64,000 bases of DNA from Candidatus Kapaibacterium sp. (GCA_044350705.1 JBILHA010000001.1:49809-113808), one strand, 5' to 3'. Counted from the stretch's first letter, positions 4,412-48,416 are shown. Notes: generated from the letters alone by a model not told the origin. Made by a program: numbers and translations.

Positions 4412-7276
4412 ATGTACGACCATGGGAATATTGATGGGAAGTGGCAGAAAAAATGGGAGGATGCAGGAATTTTTCACGCAAAGCTCGATGATGCACGAGA
4501 GAAGTATTATCTCCTCGTAGAATTTCCGTATCCTTCTGGAGCTGGCCTTCACGTAGGGCATCCCCGAAGTTATACCGCGCTTGATGTGATTGCACGTAAG
4601 CGTCGCATGGAGGGGAAGAATGTGTTGTATCCCATTGGTTGGGACGCGTTTGGTTTGCCAGCAGAAAATCATGCGATAAAAACGGGTACTCATCCAGCCA
4701 TAAATACTGCGGAAAATATCAAAACTTTTAAGAAGCAGATTCAGTCGCTTGGTATTTCTTTTGATTGGTCGCGAGAAATTGATACTACCGATCCCAAATA
4801 TTATCGTTGGACACAGTGGATGTTTAACGAATTTTTCCGACAGGGTTTGTGTTATAAGGCAAAGATGCCGATTAATTGGTGTCCAAGTTGCAAAATTGGT
4901 TTGGCAAATGAAGAAGCTGCAGGTGGTGTATGCGAACGCTGTGGAGGGCCTGTAGAGAAAAAAGAAAAGGAGCAATGGATGATTGCCATGACGAAGTATG
5001 CTGATCGTTTGCTTGAAGATTTGAAAACGGTTGATTATCTTCCAAAAATTAAAAAAGAACAGGAGGAGTGGATTGGACGAAGTGAAGGTGCGGAAATTGA
5101 TTTTCGTCTTGAAGAAATCAGCGAAACGATTACGGTATTCACTACCCGTCCCGATACAATTTTTGGCGTAACCTATATTGTTCTTGCGCCTGAACATCCG
5201 CTTGTTGCGCGATTGGTGACCGATGATCAGCGTTCGCATGTTGAAGTATATATTTCTTCTGTTGCTTCAAAGACTGATGACGAACGTGGAGATGCTACCC
5301 GTGAGAAAACGGGAGTGTTTACTGGAGCGTATGCGGTAAATCCGGTGAATGGCGAGCGTGTTCCGGTCTGGATTGCGGATTATGTTCTTGGTGGTTATGG
5401 AACGGGTGCGGTTATGGCGGTTCCTGCGCATGACGTACGCGACTTCGCATTTGCTACGACGTATGAGTTGCCGATTCGTCCTGTTGTTGCAAAGTATTTT
5501 ATGGAAAGTGAAAATCCTCCTCGTGAAGGTTTTCCTACGGTTCGCAGAAAAAATGTTCACGCCATTGTTCGTCGTGCTACCGATGGCGCAGTGCTCATGC
5601 TTCGTTGGAAGGCGAACCAGCGCGCAAGCGGTGCATATCCGCACACGTTTATCGTGGGTGGTATTGAAGAGGGTGAAGATGCACGCGAGGCGGTGCTTCG
5701 TGAGATTGCTGAAGAAACGGGATTGCACCGCGTGCGTTTCGTTTCTGAAGTTCCCGCGATTGTGCATTCGGAATATTTCGCAGGACACAAAGAGCAGAAT
5801 CGATATGCGGAAATTTCCATTCTCTGCTTTGAGGCTGATGGAGATGAAGCATTCGACGTTGCTCCTGAAGAACTCGAGAAGCATGATCCGATTTGGGTTC
5901 TGCCTTCTGATGTTGCTTCAACGGTAAATGTTGCTGAAGGTCCGTATATTTGGGCGCAGGCAGAAAAACCGTTTGCCATGACCGATGCGGGATATGTTAC
6001 AAATTCCGATTTTCTCAACGGACTTTCTACGGAAGATGCAAAGAAGCGTATTGTTGAAGTTCTTGCTGAACGTGGGTGGGGTAGAGCAAAAACAACGTAT
6101 CGCTTGCGTGACTGGGTTTTCTCCCGTCAGCGTTATTGGGGTGAGCCTATTCCGCTTATTCAATGTAAGAACGGATGTTCGCCTGAGACGAACGGCTGGG
6201 TGACGGTTCCCGATGAAGCATTGCCGGTAACGCTTCCGAATGTGGAACGTTATGAACCCACGGATACGGGTGAGTCTCCGCTTTCGGTTATTTCTGATTG
6301 GGTGAATACCACATGTCCTCAATGCGGAGGAGACGCCGTGCGAGAAACGGATACTATGCCGAACTGGGCAGGTTCGAGTTGGTACTTTTTGCGCTATGCT
6401 GATGCGCACAATGATGCGGCATTTGCAAGTAAAGATGCGCTTGCGTATTGGCTTCCTGTTGATTTGTACAATGGAGGCATGGAGCATGCGACGCGTCATT
6501 TGTTGTATGCGCGCTTCTGGACAAAAGTGTTGTTCGATCGGGGGCATTTGCCGTTTTCCGAGTTTTGTCAGCGTCGCGTTGCGCACGGCATGATTCTTGC
6601 GGAAGATGGAACGAAGATGTCGAAGTCGAAAGGAAATGTGGTGAATCCAGACGATGTCGTGAAGGAGCATGGCGCAGATACGTTGCGCGTGTATGAACTT
6701 TTTATTGGTGCGTTTGATGAAGTTGCTTCGTGGTCAACGAATAGCTTGATTGGCGTTCGTCGATTCCTTGATCGCATTACTCGACTGCAAGAAAAAGTTG
6801 GAGGGGAAGATACTGTAGAGATTCAACGTGTTTTGCAAAAGACGTTGCAGAAAGTTACTGATGATATTGAGGGCATGCGGTTTAATACGGCGGTTGCCGC
6901 GCTCATGGCATGTTTGAATGAGTTGCAGTCCGCGCCTTCGCTTTCTCAAGACGCATTCAAGCTTTACTTGCGTATGCTCGTGCCTTTTGCGCCTCACGTT
7001 GCGAATGAGTGTTGGGAGAACATTGGCGGTGAAGGTTTTGTTGAAGCACAGGCATGGCCAGTAGTTAATGCATCGTTGTTGGTTGATGAAGAAGTTACCT
7101 ATGCGGTACAGGTTAACGGAAAAGTGCGTGCGACGCTTGTACTTCCCGCTGACGCACCCGATGACATGATTATTGCTGCAGCAAAAGCAGATGAATATGT
7201 TGCAAAATATTTGGGAGGACAAGAGCCGAAAAAAGTTATCATCATCCCTAAGAAGATTGTGAGTTTCGTGGTGTAG
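4412..7276 (+). CDS. leuS: leucyl-tRNA synthetase with inserted Nudix hydrolase domain
   Basis: HVGH, TTRPDT editing motif, GTGAVMAVPAHD, YRLRDWVFSRQRYWGEPIP, KMSKSKGN. 954 aa, versus about 800-860 for typical bacterial LeuRS. Residues about 360-520 form a Nudix fold with box GGIEEGEDAREAVLREIAEETGL. Confidence 0.95.
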   Translation: MYDHGNIDGKWQKKWEDAGIFHAKLDDAREKYYLLVEFPYPSGAGLHVGHPRSYTALDVIARKRRMEGKNVLYPIGWDAFGLPAENHAIKTGTHPAINTAENIKTFKKQIQSLGISFDWSREIDTTDPKYYRWTQWMFNEFFRQGLCYKAKMPINWCPSCKIGLANEEAAGGVCERCGGPVEKKEKEQWMIAMTKYADRLLEDLKTVDYLPKIKKEQEEWIGRSEGAEIDFRLEEISETITVFTTRPDTIFGVTYIVLAPEHPLVARLVTDDQRSHVEVYISSVASKTDDERGDATREKTGVFTGAYAVNPVNGERVPVWIADYVLGGYGTGAVMAVPAHDVRDFAFATTYELPIRPVVAKYFMESENPPREGFPTVRRKNVHAIVRRATDGAVLMLRWKANQRASGAYPHTFIVGGIEEGEDAREAVLREIAEETGLHRVRFVSEVPAIVHSEYFAGHKEQNRYAEISILCFEADGDEAFDVAPEELEKHDPIWVLPSDVASTVNVAEGPYIWAQAEKPFAMTDAGYVTNSDFLNGLSTEDAKKRIVEVLAERGWGRAKTTYRLRDWVFSRQRYWGEPIPLIQCKNGCSPETNGWVTVPDEALPVTLPNVERYEPTDTGESPLSVISDWVNTTCPQCGGDAVRETDTMPNWAGSSWYFLRYADAHNDAAFASKDALAYWLPVDLYNGGMEHATRHLLYARFWTKVLFDRGHLPFSEFCQRRVAHGMILAEDGTKMSKSKGNVVNPDDVVKEHGADTLRVYELFIGAFDEVASWSTNSLIGVRRFLDRITRLQEKVGGEDTVEIQRVLQKTLQKVTDDIEGMRFNTAVAALMACLNELQSAPSLSQDAFKLYLRMLVPFAPHVANECWENIGGEGFVEAQAWPVVNASLLVDEEVTYAVQVNGKVRATLVLPADAPDDMIIAAAKADEYVAKYLGGQEPKKVIIIPKKIVSFVV

Positions 7277-32007: not shown

Positions 32008-32409
32008 ATGAAATACTTGGGTATCGATTACGGTACGAGAAAGATCGGACTCGCTCTTGGGGAGTCTGTTTCGCGTACCGCGATGCCGCTTGAAGTTTTT
32101 GTTGGTGGGGATGATGCGGTAGAGCGTATTTGTGCCTTAGCGCAGCAAGAGCATATTGATGCATTTGTCGTCGGGATTCCTGTACCTTTTCATACAGGAC
32201 AGCCGCGTACCCAATTTGATCGTGCTCAACGTTTTGCGGATGCTTTGGAAAATATGTCGCGACTCCCTGTATACAAAATTGATGAAGTATTTACTTCTCG
32301 AGAAGCACAGCGTATTCAGGATGAATACGGAAGTCGTGTTCCGGAAGATGCTCTTGCGGCCATGATGCTCGTACAGGAATATTTTGATAATCATCTCTCC
32401 TCTTCGTAG
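32008..32409 (+). CDS. ruvX: Holliday-junction resolvase-like nuclease RuvX/YqgF
   Basis: MKYLGIDYGTRKIGLALG ... RNase H-like fold motifs. Confidence 0.85.
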   Translation: MKYLGIDYGTRKIGLALGESVSRTAMPLEVFVGGDDAVERICALAQQEHIDAFVVGIPVPFHTGQPRTQFDRAQRFADALENMSRLPVYKIDEVFTSREAQRIQDEYGSRVPEDALAAMMLVQEYFDNHLSSS

Positions 32410-32428
32410 GAGAAGCGTGTGGAGGAGT

Positions 32429-33202
32429 ATGTGGTTTTCTCAAAAAACGGAAGCGATTATCTTGACCGTCCATCCCTGGAAAGAAGCGGATAAGCGGTAT
32501 GTTGCGCTGACTCGTGATTGCGGAAAGGTTGAGTTTATTGGACGCGGTGCACGGAAGGGGAAGGCAAAGCTTGCGGCGCATTTAGAGCCTTTTGCTCGCG
32601 TGCAACTGGAACTTGTTGTTGGTCGTCGGCAAACGACCGTTATTGGCGTTGAGCGTCTCGAGCATTTTTCTGGAATTGCGTATTCGCTTGAACACCGATT
32701 GGTTGCACAAGCGGCATCTTCCTTGCTTGATAAGACGTTGTATGTTGATCAGGTAGATGCGCATTTGTATTCAGAACTTTCCTCGTTCCTCCTTTTTTTG
32801 CATGGAACGGAAACGCTTTCTTCTGCTCGTGGCGCATTTGTTCTTGGAGGCTTTTTACTTCGCCTTATGCGACATTTGGGATACGAGACAGAATTGCATG
32901 CGTGTTTAGGGTGCCAAGATGCTATTCAGCCGCTTTCGTTTCGTTGGCATGATGCACGGGGAGGGCTTGTGTGCACAACGTGTTTACTTGATAAGCAAAA
33001 AGAGTGGGTAACTGCGCGAAGAATTGATGAGGAAATCGTCACATTGTTGCGTTTTGCGCGCGATGCGGGATATGAGGATTTAATGAAGGCTGGGCTTCGG
33101 GGGGAGCATTTGGAGCATTTTTCATCATGTGTTCATGATTTGTTGAGAATTCATGTTCCTGGGTATGTAGATAGGCCGTATTGGGAGATGGTTGTTGTGT
33201 GA
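32429..33202 (+). CDS. recO: DNA repair protein RecO
   Basis: OB-fold N-domain. C4 zinc finger CLGCQ ... CTTC. GGAGGAG Shine-Dalgarno. Confidence 0.85.
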   Translation: MWFSQKTEAIILTVHPWKEADKRYVALTRDCGKVEFIGRGARKGKAKLAAHLEPFARVQLELVVGRRQTTVIGVERLEHFSGIAYSLEHRLVAQAASSLLDKTLYVDQVDAHLYSELSSFLLFLHGTETLSSARGAFVLGGFLLRLMRHLGYETELHACLGCQDAIQPLSFRWHDARGGLVCTTCLLDKQKEWVTARRIDEEIVTLLRFARDAGYEDLMKAGLRGEHLEHFSSCVHDLLRIHVPGYVDRPYWEMVVV

Positions 33203-33298: not shown

Positions 33299-33326
33299 TT
33301 GCGTGTGTTTTTAACTGTGTTATAGT
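33299..33326 (+). promoter_or_regulatory. promoter-like element for the asnS leader (TTGCGT-N16-TgtTATAGT)
   Basis: Hexamers. Placement about 10 nt before the predicted leader start. Confidence 0.4.
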
Positions 33327-33334
33327 GATTTTAG

Positions 33335-33528
33335 AGACGCTTGAGGCGATTTGAACACCGCCGAGTCCGGGAAAGAAATTCTTTGTCGTAAGATGAGAAG
33401 AGTAGAATCCTGCGGGTTGCGCCCGTTAGCGCGTAGAAGAGTACAAAGTAAGGTGGCACCGCGGAGAAATTCGCCCTTACATGATCGTGATGTTTGAACA
33501 TCGTGATTTTGTAAGAGCGATTTTTTTA
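33335..33528 (+). promoter_or_regulatory. T-box riboswitch-like leader upstream of asnS
   Basis: F-box CCGTTA (33423-33428). Two AGTA boxes. T-box sequence AGGTGGCACCGCGG (33451-33464). Terminator cgcccttaca ... tgtaagagcg + T7 (33472-33527). AAC followed by A is present in the stem I region. Confidence 0.6.
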
Positions 33529-33579
33529 ATTCATATTTGAGACGCTGGACCCCGGGTCGATACCGGGTGACGCATTCGT

Positions 33580-34881
33580 ATGTATACCTCTATTGCACAT
33601 CTCAAAGATTTCGTTGGACAAGAAGTGACGCTTAAGGGCTGGGCATATAACTTCCGTTCAAGTGGAAAGATTTATTTTCTTCAGCTTCGTGATGGATCTG
33701 GATTTGTTCAGGTTGTGTTTAGTGCGGGTGATTTGACTCAGGAAGTTTGGGAGCAGTTAAAGGGAGTGACGCTTGAATCTTCTGTTGAAGTGAAGGGTAT
33801 TGTGAAGGCGGAGCCACGTGCACAGGGTGGTTTTGAAGTGCAGGGAACCGCATTTGTTCCTTTTCATATCAATACTGAGGAATATCCTGTTGGTAAGAAG
33901 GAGCATGGACCGGAGTTTCTTTTTGATAACCGTGATTTGTATCTTCGCTCGCAAACACCTTGGGCGGTACTTCGTATTCGTGATCGCGTTTTCTTTTCTA
34001 TTGAACAATTCTTCCACGAAGAGGGATTCATTCGTTTTGATACGCCGGTTCTTCAGCCAACAAGCTGTGAAGATACGACCCAGTTGTTTACCGTTGATTA
34101 TTACGGAACGCCGATGTACTTATCGCAGAGCGGTCAGCTTTATAGCGAGGCCGGTATTATGGGATTTGGAAAGGTGTATGACTTTGGTCCGGTATTTCGT
34201 GCAGAGAAGAGTAAGACTCGTCACCATTTGAGCGAACTTTGGATGATGGATGCGGAAATGGCGTTTTACGATCAGAACATGAACATGGATGTGCAGGAAA
34301 AAATGGTGAAGCGTATTGTTGCGGATGTGTTGCGTGATTGTCAGCAAGAGCTTCAGATTTTGGAGCGTGACACGACGCTTTTGCAAAAGCTTGTAGACAC
34401 GCCGTTTATTCGTAAGACGCATGCTGAAGTAAAGGCAGAGCTTGCGGCTGATGGTCTTACCGTTGATGCACTTGATGACATGAGTACGGAAGAGGAGATT
34501 TATCTTGGTGAGAAGTATAAACTTCCGGTGTTCATTCAAGATTATCCTGCGGCAGTGAAGGCGTTTTACATGAAGCGCTTTACGGATGATGCCGGCGTGC
34601 TTCGTGCACGTTGTGCTGATTTAATTGCTCCTGAAGAAGGACGAGAAATTATTGGAGGAAGTCAGCGTAATGAGCATTATGATGAGTTGAAGAAGGAGAT
34701 TATTGATCGTGAATACCCCCTTGAAGAATACGAATGGTATTTGAACACAAGAAAGTTTGGATCGGTGCCGCACAGCGGATTCGGTATTGGTCTTGAACGT
34801 ACGGTTCGTTGGATTACTGGTGTTCATCATATTCGCGAAACGATTCCGTTCGCACGCATGTTGAATAGAAATCGTCCGTAG
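33580..34881 (+). CDS. asnS: asparaginyl-tRNA synthetase
   Basis: Class IIb: FRAEKSKTRHHLSELWMMDAEMAF. C-terminus EEYEWYLNTRKFGSVPHSGFGIGLER is AsnRS-like. Confidence 0.88.
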   Translation: MYTSIAHLKDFVGQEVTLKGWAYNFRSSGKIYFLQLRDGSGFVQVVFSAGDLTQEVWEQLKGVTLESSVEVKGIVKAEPRAQGGFEVQGTAFVPFHINTEEYPVGKKEHGPEFLFDNRDLYLRSQTPWAVLRIRDRVFFSIEQFFHEEGFIRFDTPVLQPTSCEDTTQLFTVDYYGTPMYLSQSGQLYSEAGIMGFGKVYDFGPVFRAEKSKTRHHLSELWMMDAEMAFYDQNMNMDVQEKMVKRIVADVLRDCQQELQILERDTTLLQKLVDTPFIRKTHAEVKAELAADGLTVDALDDMSTEEEIYLGEKYKLPVFIQDYPAAVKAFYMKRFTDDAGVLRARCADLIAPEEGREIIGGSQRNEHYDELKKEIIDREYPLEEYEWYLNTRKFGSVPHSGFGIGLERTVRWITGVHHIRETIPFARMLNRNRP

Positions 34882-34970: not shown

Positions 34971-36284
34971 ATGAAAAATCGAACATTAGTTAAGCAGTTG
35001 CCTGAACATTTGGGACAAGAAGTAACGATTGCTGGATGGCTTTCGAACTTGCGCGATAAGAAGCATTTTGGATTTGCGATTTTGCGTGATCGAACAGGTT
35101 TGGCGCAGGTTGTTTTGGACGCGCCGCATCTTGAGCAACTTAAGGGGTTGCAGCTTGAAACGGTGATTAAAGTGAAGGGACTTGTGAAAGAAAAGCAGTC
35201 CAAGGACCCTTCGATGAAAGAAGTTGAGGTGCAATGTGTGGAGCTTGAGATTTTGTCGCCGGTAACGGAGCCGGTGCCTGTTGAAATTGCAAAGCCGGAT
35301 CTTGATTCTCAACTTGATACGCTTCTTGATAATCGCGTGATCACGCTGCGTCACCCCAAGCAACGCGCGATATTTAAGATTCAGGCGGCGCTTGTGAAGG
35401 GATATCGATCGTACATGGATCGCCAAGGATTTACGGAAATCTTTTTCCCTATTTTGGCAGGTGCGGCCAGTGAAGGCGGTGCAGAATTTTTCAAAGTTGA
35501 CTACTACGGACGTGAGGCAACGCTTACGCAGTCGGCACAGCTGTATAAGCAAATTACCATGGGCGTTTATGAGGGAGTTTACGGTTTGTCGTATTCTTTC
35601 CGCGCAGAAAAGTTTGCGACATCTCGTCACCTCACAGAGTTTAACCAGTTCGAGTTTGAGATGGGATTTGTGGAAGATATGGAGGAGGTGATGGCGCATG
35701 CAGAAGGTTCGATTCGCGAAATGGTAGCAACGGTTGCGCGTGATTGTGCTGAAGAAATTGCGCTTCTTGGTGTCACGCTTCCGCCGCTTGGTGAACGCTT
35801 CCCACGTATCTCGCTGAAAGACGCGCTCTTGGCGTATAAGGAAGAAGGGGGAGTTGATGAGACGAGTGAGCCGGATTTGTCGCCAGCGGGGGAGCGATGG
35901 CTTTCGACTGAATGGGGTCCGAAGCACCACAATTGTGGATTTATCATTGTGACGGATTACCCAACGTCGAAGCGTCCGTTTTATGCGCTTCGTGACCCGA
36001 AGGATCCGACGAATACCATTACCTTTGACTTGATTGGTTTTGGGAGTGAGATTATTTCTGGTGGTATGCGCGTGAATCGTTATGAGGATCAGGTACAGGC
36101 GATTAAAGATAAGGGATTGGATCCGGCGCAATTTGAGGATTACCTCATGATGCACAAGTACGGCATTCCTCCAGAAGGGGGATTTGGTATGGGATTGCAG
36201 CGTTTGACGCAGAACTTGCTTGGTCTTGCGAATGTGAAAGAGGCAACCATTTTCCCTCGCGATGTGCAGCGATTGAGACCGTAG
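34971..36284 (+). CDS. aspS: aspartyl-tRNA synthetase, archaeal/eukaryotic short type
   Basis: No GAD insertion. FRAEKFATSRHLTEFNQFEFEMGF. C-terminus GIPPEGGFGMGLQRL ... FPRDVQRLRP. Confidence 0.88.
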   Translation: MKNRTLVKQLPEHLGQEVTIAGWLSNLRDKKHFGFAILRDRTGLAQVVLDAPHLEQLKGLQLETVIKVKGLVKEKQSKDPSMKEVEVQCVELEILSPVTEPVPVEIAKPDLDSQLDTLLDNRVITLRHPKQRAIFKIQAALVKGYRSYMDRQGFTEIFFPILAGAASEGGAEFFKVDYYGREATLTQSAQLYKQITMGVYEGVYGLSYSFRAEKFATSRHLTEFNQFEFEMGFVEDMEEVMAHAEGSIREMVATVARDCAEEIALLGVTLPPLGERFPRISLKDALLAYKEEGGVDETSEPDLSPAGERWLSTEWGPKHHNCGFIIVTDYPTSKRPFYALRDPKDPTNTITFDLIGFGSEIISGGMRVNRYEDQVQAIKDKGLDPAQFEDYLMMHKYGIPPEGGFGMGLQRLTQNLLGLANVKEATIFPRDVQRLRP

Positions 36285-40629: not shown

Positions 40630-40706
40630 CGCAGGGTGGAGCAACCAGGCAGCTCGCCGGGCTCATAACCCGGAGGTTACAGGTTCAAATCCTGTCCCTG
40701 CAACCA
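40630..40706 (+). tRNA. tRNA-fMet (initiator, anticodon CAU)
   Basis: C1xA72 mismatch. Three consecutive G-C pairs closing the anticodon stem (GGG/CCC). T-loop GGTTCAAATCC. CCA encoded. Confidence 0.9.
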
Positions 40707-40740
40707 CAAAAACCTCTCATTTGTTGAGAGGTTTTTGTTA
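40707..40740 (+). terminator. intrinsic terminator after tRNA-fMet
   Basis: aacctctca-tttgt-tgagaggtt followed by tttt. Confidence 0.65.
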
Positions 40741-40762
40741 TGCATGACGTATTTCGTCTATT

Positions 40763-40791
40763 AAAAAAATCCGAATTTCTTCGGATTTTTT
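40763..40791 (-). terminator. intrinsic terminator after the minus-strand tRNA pair (bidirectional hairpin)
   Basis: A-run, atccgaa-tttct-tcggat, T-run; abuts the tRNA-Met 3' end. Confidence 0.6.
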
Positions 40792-40868
40792 TGGTGGCTG
40801 GGGCCGGGATCGAACCGGCGACCTAAGGCTTATGAGTCCTTCGCTCTAACCAACTGAGCTACCCAGCC
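40792..40868 (-). tRNA. tRNA-Met (anticodon CAU; elongator, or Ile2 if lysidinylated)
   Basis: Cloverleaf GGCTGGG ... CTCATAA ... GGTTCGATCC ... CCCAGCCACCA. Confidence 0.85.
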
Positions 40869-40872
40869 AAAG

Positions 40873-40959
40873 TGGTGCCTTGGGAGGGACTCGAACCCTC
40901 AATCCATTGCTGGAAACGGATTTTGAGTCCGTCGCGTATACCAATTCCGCCACCAAGGC
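40873..40959 (-). tRNA. tRNA-Leu (anticodon CAA)
   Basis: 87 nt with long variable arm. Anticodon loop CTCAAAA. T-loop GGTTCGAGTCC. CCA encoded. Confidence 0.88.
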
Positions 40960-42892: not shown

Positions 42893-44428
42893 TTATGACT
42901 GTTTTCGAACGGTTCGTTGCATAAAAGATGACCAAAGGCTTTGTCGGGTTCCTTTTAGCGCATCTTTAATTTTCTGTTTTGCATGGCGTGTTTTTACAAA
43001 CTGTAGCCACTGTTCATTGGGATATTTTCTGTTTTTATCGATGATGATTTCGCAGAGATCTCCTGAGCGAAGTGCCGTGCTCAGTGGCTTCATTTCATTA
43101 TTTACTTTTGCCTGTGCTGCCTTATTTCCGATCTCGGTGTGAATGGCATAGGCAAGATCGATCGGCGTTGAATCTTCTGGAAGGTCAATAACGTCTCCTC
43201 GAGGCGTGAAGACGAAGATGCGATCTCGGAACATGTCGAGCTTGAAGTCATTGAGCTCACGCATGAAGTCCGCAGTAGAAAGTTCCTTTTGGATAGCAGC
43301 GAGCTCCTCCATCCAGTGTACTTGACGATCGGCCGCTGTTTTTCCTTCCTTGTATTTCCAGTGTGCTGCAATACCGTATTCATTCTCTTCGTGCATTTGT
43401 AGCGTGCGAATTTGAAATTCGAGAATAGACCCGGATTCATCGAACACGGTGGTGTGGAGTGATTGATATCCGTTCGGTTTTGGTTGGGCGATATAGTCTT
43501 TGATTCTTCCCGGAAGCGGAGTGAATAGCCCGTGTAACACTCCCAGGGCTGCATAGCAGGAAGGAATGTCAGGAACGATGATGCGCAAAGCTACGATATC
43601 GTAGACTTTGCTCATATCTCCCTTATATCGATCCAGTTTCTTTTTGAGGCTGTAGCAATGTTTCACTCGTCCGTGGACTTCAATTGTGGGTACGGCATGC
43701 TTTTTTAACTCGCCTTCTACTTCCTTTAATGCTTTATCCATGGAAGGGCCGAATTTTTTTACTCGTTCTTCAAGGAGGTGTTGCGTCCAGCTATAACTTT
43801 TCGGATCGAGATATTTGAACGCGTAGTCCTCGAATTGTCCGCGGTACTCTCCCATACCCAATCGGTTGGCGATAGGGGCGTAAATTTCGAGTACCTCTTG
43901 TGCAATACGTTTACGTTTTTGTTCAGGAAGTGCGTAGAGGGTTTCAAGATTGTGTAAACGATCAGCAAATTTGATAAAAATCACTCGAACGTCTTCGGCC
44001 ATTGCCACGAACATTTTTCTTAAGTTTTCCGCATAACGCTCTTCGCCGCGATATTTTACTTTTCCTAACTTGGTTATGCCGGCCACCATGTGATGCATGT
44101 CATCTCCAAATTCGTTTTTTATATCTTCGAGGGTACGCTCGGTATCTTCGGGAACATCGTGGAGCAGACCAGCGGCGATAACATTGCTGGGGAGTTTTAG
44201 CTCGATTAACTTTTTTGCTACTTGCGTACAGTGAGAAAAATAGGGCTCCCCTGTATGCCGCGTTTGTCCTTTATGTGCCTCATCGGCGTAGGTATATGCC
44301 TTTTTGATAAGCTCAATATCGGCCGGTGTATACCGGCTATCAAGAAGGTTTATGAGTTCTTCTACGGGGATGGGCATGTGGTTTTTAACATACTCTTCCC
44401 AAAGCTGATCGTAAAGAGGTCTGTGCAT
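42893..44428 (-). CDS. rel: (p)ppGpp synthetase/hydrolase Rel, short form (HD + synthetase + TGS, no ACT domain)
   Basis: HD motif LLHDVPED. Synthetase motifs RIKD ... GYQSLHT. TGS domain IFVFTPRGDVIDLPEDSTPIDLAYAIHTEIG. Ends about 200 aa short of long Rel. Alternative start at 44377. Confidence 0.88.
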   Translation of the reverse strand: MHRPLYDQLWEEYVKNHMPIPVEELINLLDSRYTPADIELIKKAYTYADEAHKGQTRHTGEPYFSHCTQVAKKLIELKLPSNVIAAGLLHDVPEDTERTLEDIKNEFGDDMHHMVAGITKLGKVKYRGEERYAENLRKMFVAMAEDVRVIFIKFADRLHNLETLYALPEQKRKRIAQEVLEIYAPIANRLGMGEYRGQFEDYAFKYLDPKSYSWTQHLLEERVKKFGPSMDKALKEVEGELKKHAVPTIEVHGRVKHCYSLKKKLDRYKGDMSKVYDIVALRIIVPDIPSCYAALGVLHGLFTPLPGRIKDYIAQPKPNGYQSLHTTVFDESGSILEFQIRTLQMHEENEYGIAAHWKYKEGKTAADRQVHWMEELAAIQKELSTADFMRELNDFKLDMFRDRIFVFTPRGDVIDLPEDSTPIDLAYAIHTEIGNKAAQAKVNNEMKPLSTALRSGDLCEIIIDKNRKYPNEQWLQFVKTRHAKQKIKDALKGTRQSLWSSFMQRTVRKQS

Positions 44429-44813: not shown

Positions 44814-47800
44814 ATGGCGAAAAAAAAGAAACTTCAGCGAGAAGGATCAACTTCTCCAGAGCAAGAAATCATTTCTCCTGAGATGAAATTTCTTCAAGAA
44901 GCTTTGGTGCGAGCGCGAGAAGCTGCTGCTTTTGCGATGCGGTCTAAAGATGTTACCGGTGTTAGTTCTTCTATCCGGAAGATGTATGAGTCGAGAAGAG
45001 GGCAGCTTGAACAAGATGCTTTGGAACTTGCCGAATACATGAAATTAGGAAAGACTTTAGATCCTTCTTCTTTCAGGTTTCACTATAATAAGTTCATGTT
45101 ATATGCAGATCGCGTGCTTCACGATCCGAGTTTGCAGCAATTAGGGGAAGATTTTTTTGGAGTGCCCACGTCTGCAGAGGGGGCATCTCAGCAAGAGCAA
45201 GATGTTGATCGTCAGGAGGGGAAGAGGGTTGCTCGGGAAGAGCGCAGTTCTGATGCGCAGAAGATACGAAGAGAGCTTGATCGCGTGCAGGGAGTTGTTG
45301 CTGATATTCACGGGATGGAGAGGCGTGCTCAGGCGTTGCTTGAGCAAGCTTTACAGGGCCCTTTTGCGGGGGATGAAAGTTTTATAGCCCGTTTACGGGA
45401 GCATTTTTCTCAGCTTACGCTCCAGCGAGAGAATGCTGGGCATTTGTACGCGGATGTAGAGGAGCGAGGACGCTCATTGTCGCCTGAAGAACGTGCCTCT
45501 TTTCTTGAAGAAGTGCATGCCCTTTCTTTTGTGGAATTTCAGCAGAAAGCAGGCGAGATCCTGCGAGATCTGCAGCAAGAGATCGCTTTGCAGCGTGGTC
45601 TCTTGCATGATCGTATTGACGTACTTTTTCAATCATTTTCTGAGCAGAAAAAGCAAAAAGCAACGGCGCTCATGAAGCAAGTTAAAGCTGCCGAAAAGCA
45701 GCAAAATGATCAACGTCTTTTTGCGCTTTTTGAAAAACTTCAAGATCTTTCACGTGAAGAAGATGCAAAGGGAGAGGAAGTTCCTGAAAATGCAGACTTG
45801 CTCGTCTCCGCGCCTGTCGAGAAAAGTGCTGCCTCAGGGGGTGTTGAGAACGTGCCTTTGTTTGCCAGTTTGCGTTTTGGGAAGTCGGGAATGGGCATTC
45901 CCGAGACTTTTTTCCAAGATCCTGCGCTCCGTGCTCGTATACGCGCTGCGGAGGAATTTGATGCTCCTGAGCAGGAGCCGGAAGTGAAGCAGCGACGAGA
46001 GCGGAAAGAGATCCCTTCCGAAGACCGTCAGCTCCTTGAGGCGTTTTTGGAAAAAGACTTTGAGGAAACCGTTGAAACATATGGAGAGGCCGAGCTTGTG
46101 GCGGTTGCGCGAGTGCTTGTTCGCGCGCGCAAGAAGAGATTTATTGCTTCCGACGCGCTGCTTACGCGGGCGAGGGAGCGATTTTCTTCGTTGATGGGGG
46201 GATGGGCTCCTGAGGCCGCTCTTGCGGCGTATGATGAATATCAAGCGACGCTGACTCTGCGCGGGGAGGAAGGGCGTGCTTCCTCCGCTGATTCTCCAAG
46301 GGAAGATCGAGTAGGGGCAGAGTCTTCTGACGGGGAGATTGATTCTCTTGTTTTTCAAGAGGATGATGCAGCGATGCGGGTGGATTTTGCTCTTCACGTG
46401 CAAGATGCTGAGATTTCATCTGAGGAAGTAGAGGAGCGAAAGAAGCGTGTTACCAGTATTTTACAGAGTCTTTCTTCGCGTACTTTATGGAAACCAGATC
46501 TTGTTCTTTCTGGTGATGAGCAAGCGCTTGCAGCCATGGATCTTGATGCAGAGCGTCGTAATTATCTTCGCGCACAGCTTTTCTTAAATGGTACTGAGGA
46601 AGGGTTGTTTTTCCAGCGCATTTTGGCCCAGGCTCGAAATGAAGCTGCTGTTCGCGAGCGGATGATTTCTCTTCTTTTGGAAGTGCAGGGTCTTACTCCC
46701 ACGCAGCGGCGTATGGTTTTTGAGCAAGAACTCTTACCCACCCCGGTTGTGGTAGAGGAAGAGCAGGAGGGGTCTTCGCCTGAGGCTCGCGAAGAAGAGG
46801 GCTCTCCGGCTGATCAGACGCCAAAGCCTGAAGAGGCGCAGCAGGATGAAGCTCCTTCTTCAGAGGGGCGCGCATCTGTTTCAGGAGGATCGGGAAATGT
46901 TCCCCCTCCACCTTCTGAGCCAGGACCTGTACCGCCGTTTGAAGAAGGAGAAAGAGGAGAGCGGGGGAAGAGGGAGGAGAAGGAGTCTCTTTTTGCGCGT
47001 ATGCGGAAGTGGACGAAGGAGCGTGCGCGCGAATTTGAGGATACTGATATTTATCGCGTGCATATTAAGGGAGAAAAGACGCTTCGTGAATTGCGAGGAG
47101 ATGCGCCTACGCTTTCTCCGAAGGTTATGCTTGCGGCAGGTATTGGGTCTGCAGCGATGAGTTATTTTGGTGCGGCTTTTCCGGTTGATGCCTTACGGTA
47201 TGCAACACAGCGTCACTTTGTAGGAAAGGAACGTGATGAAATGTCTCGAGCATTCCATGAGGCATTTGCGCGGCGAAGGAGGGAAGGGGAAGTGAGTGAT
47301 CAAGAACGGGTACGCGAGCGTCAGCAGGCGCTTCGATCTCGTGTCGAATCATCTCGTTATCTCACCCATGCCCAGAAACAGGATTTGCTCGATCAACTTT
47401 TTGCTCAAGAAGAGACTCTCGCAGCTCAAGTTTCTCCTCGGCATGAGTATCTCACTAGAGAGGTTGGGCGTATTTTGGAGCATGCTATTCGTACTCGTGT
47501 TTCGGGTGAGAAGGTTGTGAAAGAGGGGCTGAATACGACGTTTATGCTTACTGGCTTCCATATGCTTCGGGCGCCGGCATATGGTGCGGTGTCCATTTAT
47601 GAGCGTTGGAATCGGTTGACGCGTGAGAGGCCTGAATCATCTGCTGGAGAACGTTTGCGGTCTACGTTCGCAGGAGGTTTCCAGGATTGGTGGAGTCGTG
47701 CAAAGGGGGAGAGCGGCCGTATGGCGCAGGCTGCAGCCTTTGGTACTGCGGCACGATTTGTCGGCATGAGCATGGTTGGATACGAGGCTTTGGGGGGTTC

Positions 47801-48416
47801 AGGTATCTCGGAGCTGTTTGCTGCTTGGGAACGGAAAGAATCTCTCTATCCATCGCAGGATTCCGATCTTTCCGGTCGTTCTTTGGAGGAGCTTGCTTCA
47901 GGGCAGCGTGAACAGGTGTCTTTGCCCCAGAAGGAATCGAATTCCGCGGGAGTCTCAATTCCGGAACCTTTGTTTAGCGATGTTTTTTCTGATGACGTGC
48001 GTGCAGAGGGGAGCGCGGGACTCTCTCAGCTTGAAGCTCCCCTTTCCGAGAACGCTTCTTCCGAGATTGTTCTTTCGCCTGACCGTATCCCTTCCGAAGC
48101 TCTTGTGAGCAAGGGGGATGGGATTACCCAAGTTCTTCTTTCGGGTATTGAGGCGCGTCCCGATCTTCTGCGTGCCGCTGATCAATCCGTACTTCAGGAT
48201 GATTATGCCTCCGCTCTCTTTTTGAAGCGTCTTGCTGCCAAGGAAGGATTGTTGGATTATTGGGTGAACGATCAAGCGATCGGAGAATTAGCGATTGTGC
48301 CTACCTATGATGCTGCTGGTGAGCTTCATATTTCTTTCTTAAACCCTGAAAGTGGGAGTGCTTATTCTCTCGAGGAATTGAAAGAAATGGGGTGGCTTAC
48401 CAAGGCCTCTCATTAA
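44814..48416 (+). CDS. large hypothetical protein (1200 aa, charged/low-complexity, ORFan-like)
   Basis: Long uninterrupted ORF rich in E/R/A. Pro/Gly-rich linker with PPPPSEPGPVPP. Two short hydrophobic segments. No recognisable domain. Confidence 0.55.
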   Translation: MAKKKKLQREGSTSPEQEIISPEMKFLQEALVRAREAAAFAMRSKDVTGVSSSIRKMYESRRGQLEQDALELAEYMKLGKTLDPSSFRFHYNKFMLYADRVLHDPSLQQLGEDFFGVPTSAEGASQQEQDVDRQEGKRVAREERSSDAQKIRRELDRVQGVVADIHGMERRAQALLEQALQGPFAGDESFIARLREHFSQLTLQRENAGHLYADVEERGRSLSPEERASFLEEVHALSFVEFQQKAGEILRDLQQEIALQRGLLHDRIDVLFQSFSEQKKQKATALMKQVKAAEKQQNDQRLFALFEKLQDLSREEDAKGEEVPENADLLVSAPVEKSAASGGVENVPLFASLRFGKSGMGIPETFFQDPALRARIRAAEEFDAPEQEPEVKQRRERKEIPSEDRQLLEAFLEKDFEETVETYGEAELVAVARVLVRARKKRFIASDALLTRARERFSSLMGGWAPEAALAAYDEYQATLTLRGEEGRASSADSPREDRVGAESSDGEIDSLVFQEDDAAMRVDFALHVQDAEISSEEVEERKKRVTSILQSLSSRTLWKPDLVLSGDEQALAAMDLDAERRNYLRAQLFLNGTEEGLFFQRILAQARNEAAVRERMISLLLEVQGLTPTQRRMVFEQELLPTPVVVEEEQEGSSPEAREEEGSPADQTPKPEEAQQDEAPSSEGRASVSGGSGNVPPPPSEPGPVPPFEEGERGERGKREEKESLFARMRKWTKERAREFEDTDIYRVHIKGEKTLRELRGDAPTLSPKVMLAAGIGSAAMSYFGAAFPVDALRYATQRHFVGKERDEMSRAFHEAFARRRREGEVSDQERVRERQQALRSRVESSRYLTHAQKQDLLDQLFAQEETLAAQVSPRHEYLTREVGRILEHAIRTRVSGEKVVKEGLNTTFMLTGFHMLRAPAYGAVSIYERWNRLTRERPESSAGERLRSTFAGGFQDWWSRAKGESGRMAQAAAFGTAARFVGMSMVGYEALGGSGISELFAAWERKESLYPSQDSDLSGRSLEELASGQREQVSLPQKESNSAGVSIPEPLFSDVFSDDVRAEGSAGLSQLEAPLSENASSEIVLSPDRIPSEALVSKGDGITQVLLSGIEARPDLLRAADQSVLQDDYASALFLKRLAAKEGLLDYWVNDQAIGELAIVPTYDAAGELHISFLNPESGSAYSLEELKEMGWLTKASH

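Follow-up and report, generated by a model that had tools for sequence, protein, structure and literature searches.

The 64,000-nucleotide stretch analysed here (the window; Candidatus Kapaibacterium sp., GCA_044350705.1 JBILHA010000001.1:49809-113808, positions counted from its first letter) contains at 33299-33579 a region with a recO-like gene (32384-33202) on one side and, on the other, asnS, a class II synthetase gene that is followed by an archaeal-type aspS gene. A first inspection without database searches (the sequence-only reading) had taken this region to be a T-box-like riboswitch leader that controls asnS and probably also aspS. Our analysis indicates that it is very probably a real tRNA-sensing T-box riboswitch, of a short form and in an ultrasmall host of the Patescibacteria (Candidate Phyla Radiation, CPR); its helices covary, and it has an AAC specifier, a UGGC bulge and a competing antiterminator and terminator, so that control of asnS by a T-box is upheld. 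We consider it highly likely that the leader is specific for tRNA-Asn and governs an asnS-aspS operon by transcription attenuation; tRNA binding, the sensing of charging and termination in vivo are properties that we infer from the sequence, the covariation and the structures published for related RNAs. The elements of the leader and the two genes, all on the + strand, are as follows (kink-turn is abbreviated K-turn, and its canonical and noncanonical stems C-stem and NC-stem):

33299-33326, putative sigma-70-type promoter: -35 TTGCGT at 33299-33304, 16-nt spacer, extended -10 TGT-TATAGT at 33318-33326 (TATAGT, recognised by sequence, at 33321-33326)
33336-33367, ultrashort Stem I, 32 nt: K-turn, 4-bp helix and terminal specifier loop
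33336-33338 with 33365-33367, K-turn C-stem, GAC with GUC (covariation)
33339-33344, K-turn bulge and GA, GCUUGA, opposite GA at 33363-33364 (UGA...GA invariant in the window's own group, defined below)
33345-33348 with 33359-33362, Stem I 4-bp helix, GGCG with CGCC (covariation)
33349-33358, Stem I terminal loop AUUUGAACAC
33354-33356, specifier AAC (Asn codon) in the Stem I terminal loop, then the conserved purine A33357
33368-33372 with 33408-33412, Stem II base helix, CGGGA with UCCUG (all 5 pairs covary; 97% of cells pair)
33373-33377 opposite 33401-33407, Stem II S-turn internal loop, AAGAA and AGUAGAA (both strands invariant in the window's own group)
33378-33400, Stem II distal hairpin, variable
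33401-33404 and 33440-33443, AGUA boxes, recognised by sequence
33413-33416 with 33422-33425, Stem IIA, CGGG with CCCG (loop UUGCG at 33417-33421)
33423-33428, F-box CCGUUA
33432-33436, 3' strand of the IIB pseudoknot, CGUAG, pairing with the IIA loop 33417-33421
33437-33447, single-stranded linker AAGAGUACAAA, 11 nt, in place of Stem III
33446-33448, conserved AAG, corresponding to the discriminator element RAG (described in PMC11297988)
33448-33480, discriminator (antiterminator): helix A1, 7-nt T-box bulge and helix A2
33448-33453 with 33475-33480, antiterminator helix A1, GUAAGG with CCUUAC
33451-33464, T-box core AGGTGGCACCGCGG / AGGUGGCACCGCGG
33454-33460, T-box bulge UGGCACC (UGGC at 33454-33457)
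33461-33465 with 33470-33474, antiterminator helix A2, GCGGA with UUCGC (loop GAAA at 33466-33469)
33471-33520, intrinsic terminator hairpin, with U7 after it at 33521-33527; the hairpin 5' arm, 33471-33480, doubles as the antiterminator 3' arm
33472-33481 and 33510-33519, terminator arms cgcccttaca and tgtaagagcg
33528-33579, 52-nt spacer from the terminator to the asnS AUG at 33580
33580-34881, asnS, asparagine--tRNA ligase, 433 aa, predicted first regulated gene (NCBIfam NF003037, 483 bits, cutoff 414)
34972-36284, archaeal-type aspS, aspartate--tRNA(Asn) ligase family (NCBIfam NF003483, 451 bits, cutoff 353)

All of the motifs first read from the sequence are present: the promoter-like TTGCGT-N16-TGT-TATAGT, the AAC followed by A in Stem I (33354-33357), both AGTA boxes, the CCGTTA F-box, the T-box sequence at 33451-33464 and the intrinsic terminator with its T7 run, which ends 52 nt before the ATG. 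In addition, AAGGUGGCACCGCG at 33450-33463 fits the conserved 14-nt T-box sequence AGGGUGGNACCGCG, with its 7-nt UGGNACC bulge lying between helices A1 and A2. A generic consensus scan missed the promoter because only 8 of the 12 consensus positions match. Of 10 related leaders, 8 carry TATAGT or a close variant 15-20 nt 5' of the Stem I helix, and from this conserved -10 position transcription is predicted to start at ~33333-33335, about 7 nt past the -10 and at the foot of the K-turn, which gives a leader of ~194-195 nt (~33334-33527).

Two other assignments were tried and rejected. GAC at 33336-33338 is ruled out as a second specifier, since it is part of the K-turn C-stem and is replaced by covarying pairs in relatives, and an alternative IIB register at 33430-33433 is possible in the window alone but the family favours 33432-33436. 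The region also contains a weak promoter-like TTGTAA-N17-CATATT that overlaps the terminator 3' arm, and an 8-mer (GAGACGCT) at the leader start (33334-33341) that is repeated at 33539-33546. The 52-nt spacer can fold into a hairpin (CCCGG 33551-33555 with CCGGG 33563-33567), and related locus L001 has an analogous spacer hairpin of other sequence (GCCGGA/UCCGGC).

Conservation and covariation of the leader

The exact core GGTGGCACCGCG occurs in 23 of 80 related loci, directly 5' of asnS in 21 of them and further upstream in L012 and L014, and all of these core-bearing loci have a short hairpin with AAC in its terminal loop. Taken by itself, the 12-mer T-box core would turn up about once per window by chance; the features of the leader exceed chance, because the core recurs in 23 loci, the helices covary and a covariance model of the relatives matches the window once.

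The window aligns over the full length of the leader with L001, L002, L004, L005, L047, L075 and L125 (the last metagenomic), and these constitute its own group. Seven helices were annotated (K-turn C-stem, Stem I, Stem II base, IIA, IIB pseudoknot, and antiterminator helices A1 and A2), and in the slid controls the pairing partners were shifted by 1-3 columns. In a MAFFT alignment of 7 sequences (alignment 1), 95.9% of cells pair compared with 35-45% in the slid controls, and 13 pairs change on both sides; in an alignment of 15 sequences fitted to the covariance model (alignment 2), 94.9% of cells pair compared with 34-44%, and 19 of 32 pairs change on both sides. None of 500 shuffles reached the observed pairing or covariation values with either alignment. 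The IIB pseudoknot provides an independent test, because it is absent from the covariance model used for alignment 2: four of its five pairs change on both sides, and the middle pair is seen as AU, GU, CG, GC and UA. The Stem I helices pair in 95-100% of cells, with GAC/GUC replaced by GGC/GCC, and GGCG/CGCC by GACG/CGUC or AGCG/CGCU, and the two antiterminator helices pair in 96-100% of cells, also with compensatory changes. The foot of Stem I has the pattern of a K-turn (C-stem, 3-4 nt bulge, GA, NC-stem, GA, C-stem), and in this predicted motif the GA does not vary within the window's own group. Neither the window nor any own-group relative has a long Stem I with internal specifier loop, AG bulge and distal loop. 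Stem III, which normally touches the tRNA 3' end duplex with its purines (PMC7778990), is present as a hairpin inserted at the linker position in L001, L004 and L047.

At gathering thresholds the Rfam matches across the whole window were three tRNAs only, with no T-box among them, and RF00230 reported no T-box in 20 loci of the leader's family; the curated model misses a whole class of such leaders. A permissive local search with RF00230 gave a match of 35.8 bits (E=2e-6) over 33374-33481. This match is partial: the F-box/Stem IIA segment and the T-box/antiterminator segment align well (the latter with high posterior probability), CGGGUUGCGCCCGUUA being placed at the IIA and F-box positions of the model, and 89 Stem I model positions are deleted. 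The covariance model that we built from the own-group MAFFT alignment matches the window once, at the leader, with 146 bits (the runner-up has 8 bits), and it recovered further full-length members in a metagenome scan. No other T-box was found in the 64-kb window by this model with its filters off or by a core-motif search.

Specificity, expression platform and alternative explanations

The triplet in the terminal loop follows the downstream gene. It is AAC before asnS (own group, L083 and L184), and it is GAC in leaders of the same architecture that precede aspS of bacterial type (L081 and L130) or archaeal type (L149). In the window, AAC at 33354-33356 with its purine A, upstream of asnS, is what a T-box specifier for this gene calls for. 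Groups A and B of the related leaders have G before AAC, group C has A, group D and L097 have U, and L162 has C, so AAC and not GAA is the conserved triplet. ARAGORN identified 16 tRNA-Asn(GUU) genes in other CPR loci, all with U1-A72, G73 and no encoded CCA. AAC is complementary to the GUU anticodon of these genes and the leader's UGGC to their GCCA 3' end after CCA addition; the specifier and discriminator pairings that had been suggested at the outset would thus be possible with tRNA-Asn of other CPR genomes.

The tRNA-Asn(GUU) genes make up 16 of the 33 tRNA genes found across all loci. In 15 T-box-negative CPR loci labelled Dojkabacteria/Saccharibacteria (L031, L049, L051-L053, L057, L059, L060, L064-L066, L070, L073, L079 and L080) such a gene lies on the same strand 100-1500 nt 5' of asnS, so that asnS is linked either to a sensing leader or to the tRNA-Asn gene itself. 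The window's own tRNA genes are clustered at 40630-40959 and comprise tRNA-Met(CAU) on the + strand and tRNA-Met(CAU) and tRNA-Leu(CAA) on the - strand; one of the two tRNA-Met genes has the C1 mismatch typical of initiator tRNA.

The terminator hairpin at 33471-33520 has a folding energy of -23.9 kcal/mol (z = -6.4 relative to mononucleotide shuffles) and the antiterminator, folded explicitly, -10.9 kcal/mol, so that the terminator is 13 kcal/mol more stable. The two folds are mutually exclusive, because they have the 10 nt at 33471-33480 in common. RNAalifold with 13 relatives gave a terminator consensus of 22 pairs, 13 of them compensatory, with a U-tract in every sequence.

These elements suggest the following mechanism. 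Transcription would begin about 7 nt past the TATAGT -10, and the nascent RNA would fold into a compact decoding module of ~101 nt in which the K-turn bends the 4-bp Stem I, and the terminal loop offers AAC and the following A to the GUU anticodon of tRNA-Asn. The purines of the Stem II S-turn, placed by the IIA/IIB pseudoknot, would clamp the codon-anticodon helix as they do in actinobacterial ileS T-boxes. A bound tRNA that is uncharged could pair through its 3' G73-C-C-A end with UGGC of the 7-nt bulge and stabilise the weak antiterminator, which uses 33471-33480 and so would block the stronger terminator, and RNA polymerase would then continue into asnS and the archaeal-type aspS. With charged tRNA-Asn there would be no 3'-end contact, the terminator would form and transcription would stop at ~33527.

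Might the hairpin at 33471-33520 act instead on translation, as a sequestrator that blocks ribosome access in the manner of the actinobacterial short-Stem-I class? A decoding module of this type has so far been linked to slow translational control, a short or "ultrashort" Stem I being typical of translational T-boxes (PMC7583486). Moreover, most other relatives have no spacer: the AUG follows immediately on their U-tract, and 10-17 nt separate it from the purine-rich 3' arm (UAAGGGCGAA or ACAGGCGAA) upstream, so the hairpin in such relatives could also hide the ribosome-binding region and block initiation. In the window, however, 59 nt lie between the end of the hairpin and the AUG, and with 52 nt of spacer between the U-tract and the AUG the hairpin cannot sequester the start region or act on the ribosome-binding region; control should therefore be transcriptional. 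A hairpin followed by a run of U in every family member is the signature of an intrinsic terminator, and L081 carries a separate AAGGAGG 3' of its terminator. We regard translational control of the window's leader as improbable.

A dual specificity, in which the codons GAA (Glu) and AAC (Asn) overlap in the loop sequence GAAC and the leader responds to both tRNA-Glu and tRNA-Asn, seems to us somewhat less probable still. GAAC does not vary within groups A and B. In bacteria tRNA-Glu, too, has G73, so that the UGGC bulge would fit it as well. There is also a precedent in Clostridium acetobutylicum, whose transamidation operon has a T-box with two codons (Saad et al. 2013, as outlined in PMC4052509). 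Against this, AAC alone, and not the base before it, is conserved across the wider family, and the operon encodes AsnRS and AspRS and nothing related to Glu. A decayed T-box relic, or an element reduced to a plain constitutive terminator or attenuator without tRNA sensing, would agree with the sub-threshold RF00230 score and the missing Stem I platform and Stem III, but is very improbable, as compensatory changes in seven helices including a pseudoknot, together with an invariant S-turn and T-box bulge, are unexpected in a relic, the specifier switches with the downstream gene, and a constitutive -24 kcal/mol terminator before an essential synthetase gene would be harmful.

Several points weigh against a tRNA-Asn-responsive transcriptional T-box all the same. 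The RF00230 score of 35.8 bits is far under the gathering score of 93, and the sequence-only reading had named the lack of a hit above threshold as grounds for its own rejection. By that measure the leader is formally rejected; we consider the measure inadequate, one that would wrongly discard a real element, because the comparative evidence supports the leader and Rfam misses the class. Alignment 2, being fitted to the covariance model, favours the modelled helices, which is not so for IIB or for the MAFFT alignment 1. Stem III is absent in the window, and L002, L005 and L075 likewise have no conserved helix at that place. The leader also has no Stem I distal platform; as reviews describe it, fast tRNA capture by transcriptional T-boxes generally depends on a long Stem I that bears an elbow-binding platform (PMC7583486). 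There is no tRNA-Asn gene in the window (its tRNA genes being Met, Met and Leu only), and the match to G73 rests on other CPR lineages. Finally, aspS may have an internal promoter within the 90-nt spacer that separates it from asnS.

Host lineage, operon and wider family

The nearest relatives of asnS (61-91% amino acid identity) are in metagenome-assembled genomes (MAGs) of the Patescibacteria group, chiefly Candidatus Uhrbacteria, a member of the Parcubacteria group of the Patescibacteria; several near relatives are in third-party annotation (TPA) assemblies labelled "uncultured Gammaproteobacteria". Judged by these matches, the window genome is a CPR genome and Candidatus Uhrbacteria-like, which is the situation in which a T-box had been said to be of particular note. 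Many of the "uncultured Gammaproteobacteria bacterium" TPA MAGs (L001-L004, L006, L007 and many others) have an asnS that is 70-90% identical to those of Uhrbacteria/Patescibacteria MAGs and share the recO-asnS-aspS order, and their taxonomic labels are probably wrong.

The asnS product has the Pfam domains tRNA-synt_2 and an OB anticodon-binding domain. The mechanically called aspS open reading frame (ORF) opens at GTG 34896, with ~25 N-terminal residues more than the NF003483 match; alignments of orthologues (tblastn) begin at residues 23-26, and MKNRTLVKQL opens at ATG 34972, which is probably the true start. The two genes are probably co-transcribed, since their order is conserved, the gaps between them are small (down to 4-20 nt in relatives) and the 90-nt spacer in the window contains no terminator-like site, promoter-like site or T-box by scan and covariance model. 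The order recO, leader, asnS, aspS is found in all T-box-positive relatives (asnS/aspS cross-matches having been removed from the synteny table by an identity filter), which favours the control of aspS that had been called probable. Archaeal-type AspRS copies of Deinococcus/Thermus are non-discriminating and make Asn on tRNA-Asn with GatCAB, which requires U1-A72 in tRNA-Asn (PMC4206432). CPR tRNA-Asn has this U1-A72, so one tRNA-Asn signal may control both routes to Asn-tRNA-Asn; the arrangement suggests co-regulation of the direct route (AsnRS) and possibly the indirect one (archaeal-type AspRS). This rationale is one that we infer, because neither gatCAB nor a second aspS was found in the window among ORFs of at least 330 aa.

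Three other window genes may be mentioned. The leuS gene (4412-7276, + strand, 954 aa) has a NUDIX domain at residues 378-501 (Pfam E=1.7e-12) just past the editing domain, an unusual fusion or insertion, and no T-box was found upstream of it. A RelA/SpoT-family gene (42893-44428) with HD, RelA_SpoT and TGS domains indicates that the window genome appears to encode stringent-response machinery, and it adjoins a 1200-aa ORF (44814-48416, + strand) that has no Pfam match at E<=1e-5.

Beyond the window's own group, the segment between Stem I and the discriminator is strikingly diverse, and groups B and C hold most of the family's potential novelty. Group B leaders (asnS 78-81% identical; L003:2336-2446, L006:2348-2443, L010:2360-2451 and L058:2340-2451) are ~95 nt in total and consist of a K-turn Stem I with an AAC loop, a ~25-nt purine-rich linker (AAGACAAU...) and the antiterminator, with no Stem II, IIA/B pseudoknot, Stem III or elbow platform. 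Group C leaders (L007:2304-2372, L008:2308-2376, L018:2306-2374, L015, L019, L020, L061 and L083), which precede asnS-aspS, open with a three-way junction that has a covarying closing helix (CUGA/UCAG or CCGA/UCGG) and two arms. Arm 1 has the invariant loop (C)GUGACAG, like the (C/A)UGACA specifier loops of Asp-type leaders, and arm 2 the loop CAAACAA, which includes AAC; the arms could be tandem Asp and Asn specifiers that feed one UGGC discriminator, or one could be a structural docking arm. L104:1478-1650 (- strand) is a 71% GC leader with AAC before a gene of the Asp-tRNA(Asn) ligase type (NF003483, 558 bits), and its platform looks translational, with GGAGG just before the start codon; its sequence fits tRNA-Asn control of a non-discriminating AspRS. 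Short AAC-type leaders with K-turn and S-turn but no IIA/B, L162:8139-8251 and L097:523-659 (both - strand), precede a ~90-120 aa ORF (...YKHSKTGNLYKVHFIAKHSETLEDMVVYEALY...) that has no NCBIfam match and is not a synthetase.

We tentatively suggest that these leaders belong to an unrecognised and diverse Patescibacteria T-box lineage, in which a hairpin with the specifier in its terminal loop replaces the long Stem I even for transcriptional control, and in which some relatives of ~95 nt may function without platform and Stem II. If this is true, neither platform nor Stem II would be indispensable to a kinetic (transcriptional) T-box, and the minimal forms would be candidates for ancestral or minimal tRNA-sensing RNAs.

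Comparison with known T-boxes

T-boxes are documented in Firmicutes, Actinobacteria, Chloroflexi, Deinococcus-Thermus and a few Deltaproteobacteria, and in the literature that we searched no T-box report was tied to CPR/Patescibacteria, whose native cis-regulatory RNAs appear little described. The short-Stem-I model of TBDB was applied only to Actinobacteria and to class I hits with truncated Stem I. The new aspects here are the CPR host lineage, the atypical pairing of decoding module and platform, the lack of Stem III and the invisibility to the curated model. A tRNA-sensing riboswitch would thus operate, or at least be kept under selection, in ultrasmall reduced genomes, and the compact family could be a source of small natural scaffolds, both in structural studies and in building the inducible expression tools still missing in Patescibacteria genetics.

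With the transcriptional T-boxes of Firmicutes (RF00230; for example B. subtilis tyrS) the window's leader has in common the T-box core AGGUGGCACCGCG, the 7-nt UGGN bulge, antiterminator/terminator competition, the F-box, IIA/B, the Stem II AGUA box and the K-turn (GA motif). The logic, a synthetase gene induced by its cognate uncharged tRNA, would also be the same; the window differs in having neither the long Stem I (internal specifier loop, AG bulge and distal loop platform) nor Stem III. The sequence-only reading had likened the leader to compact glyQS-type T-boxes without Stem II. The likeness stands for compactness (~195 nt) and for the predicted transcriptional control, but not for architecture: glyQS keeps the long Stem I and its platform and has no Stem II or IIA/B, whereas the window has the reverse, with Stem II and IIA/B present and covarying and the long Stem I and Stem III missing. 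The Asn/Glu T-box of C. acetobutylicum, as far as PMC4052509 describes it, is likewise of tRNA-Asn type, precedes genes of the Asp/Asn-tRNA pathway and has a GAAC loop in which GAA and AAC overlap. That account presents it only as a transcriptional Firmicutes T-box with a specifier loop, and its dual specificity as shown by experiment, whereas the G before AAC in the window is not conserved in the wider family.

The nearest architecture is that of the actinobacterial ultrashort-Stem-I ileS class (Mycobacterium and Nocardia; "class II", translational; PDB 6UFG and 6UFM, PMC7583486), to which the leader was compared by published description. Stem I of Nocardia farcinica ileS is a K-turn plus an apical loop (PMC10651847), and its S-turn clamps the codon-anticodon helix with a five-purine string (G37 A38 A39 / G67 U A69 G70 A71; PMC7583486). 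In this class the S-turn of Stem II and the IIA/B pseudoknot make up for the elbow contact that went with the truncation of Stem I. The predicted decoding module of the window is the same, namely a short Stem I with K-turn, apical specifier, S-turn Stem II, IIA/B with F-box and T-box bulge; its S-turn strands AAGAA and AGUAGAA match the published purine string, and neither has an elbow-binding platform. They are also alike in size, ~101 nt in the window and 99 nt in the ileS module T99, which includes the IIA/B pseudoknot (PMC7583486; PMC10651847; PMC11297988). They differ in that the window has no Stem III, that its specifier is AAC (Asn) before asnS-aspS in Patescibacteria and theirs AUC (Ile) before ileS in Actinobacteria, and above all that its platform is an intrinsic terminator with U7 and theirs a Shine-Dalgarno sequestrator. 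A short decoding module joined to a terminator is a combination that reviews describe as atypical, and it challenges the generalisation that transcriptional T-boxes need an elbow platform for fast tRNA capture.

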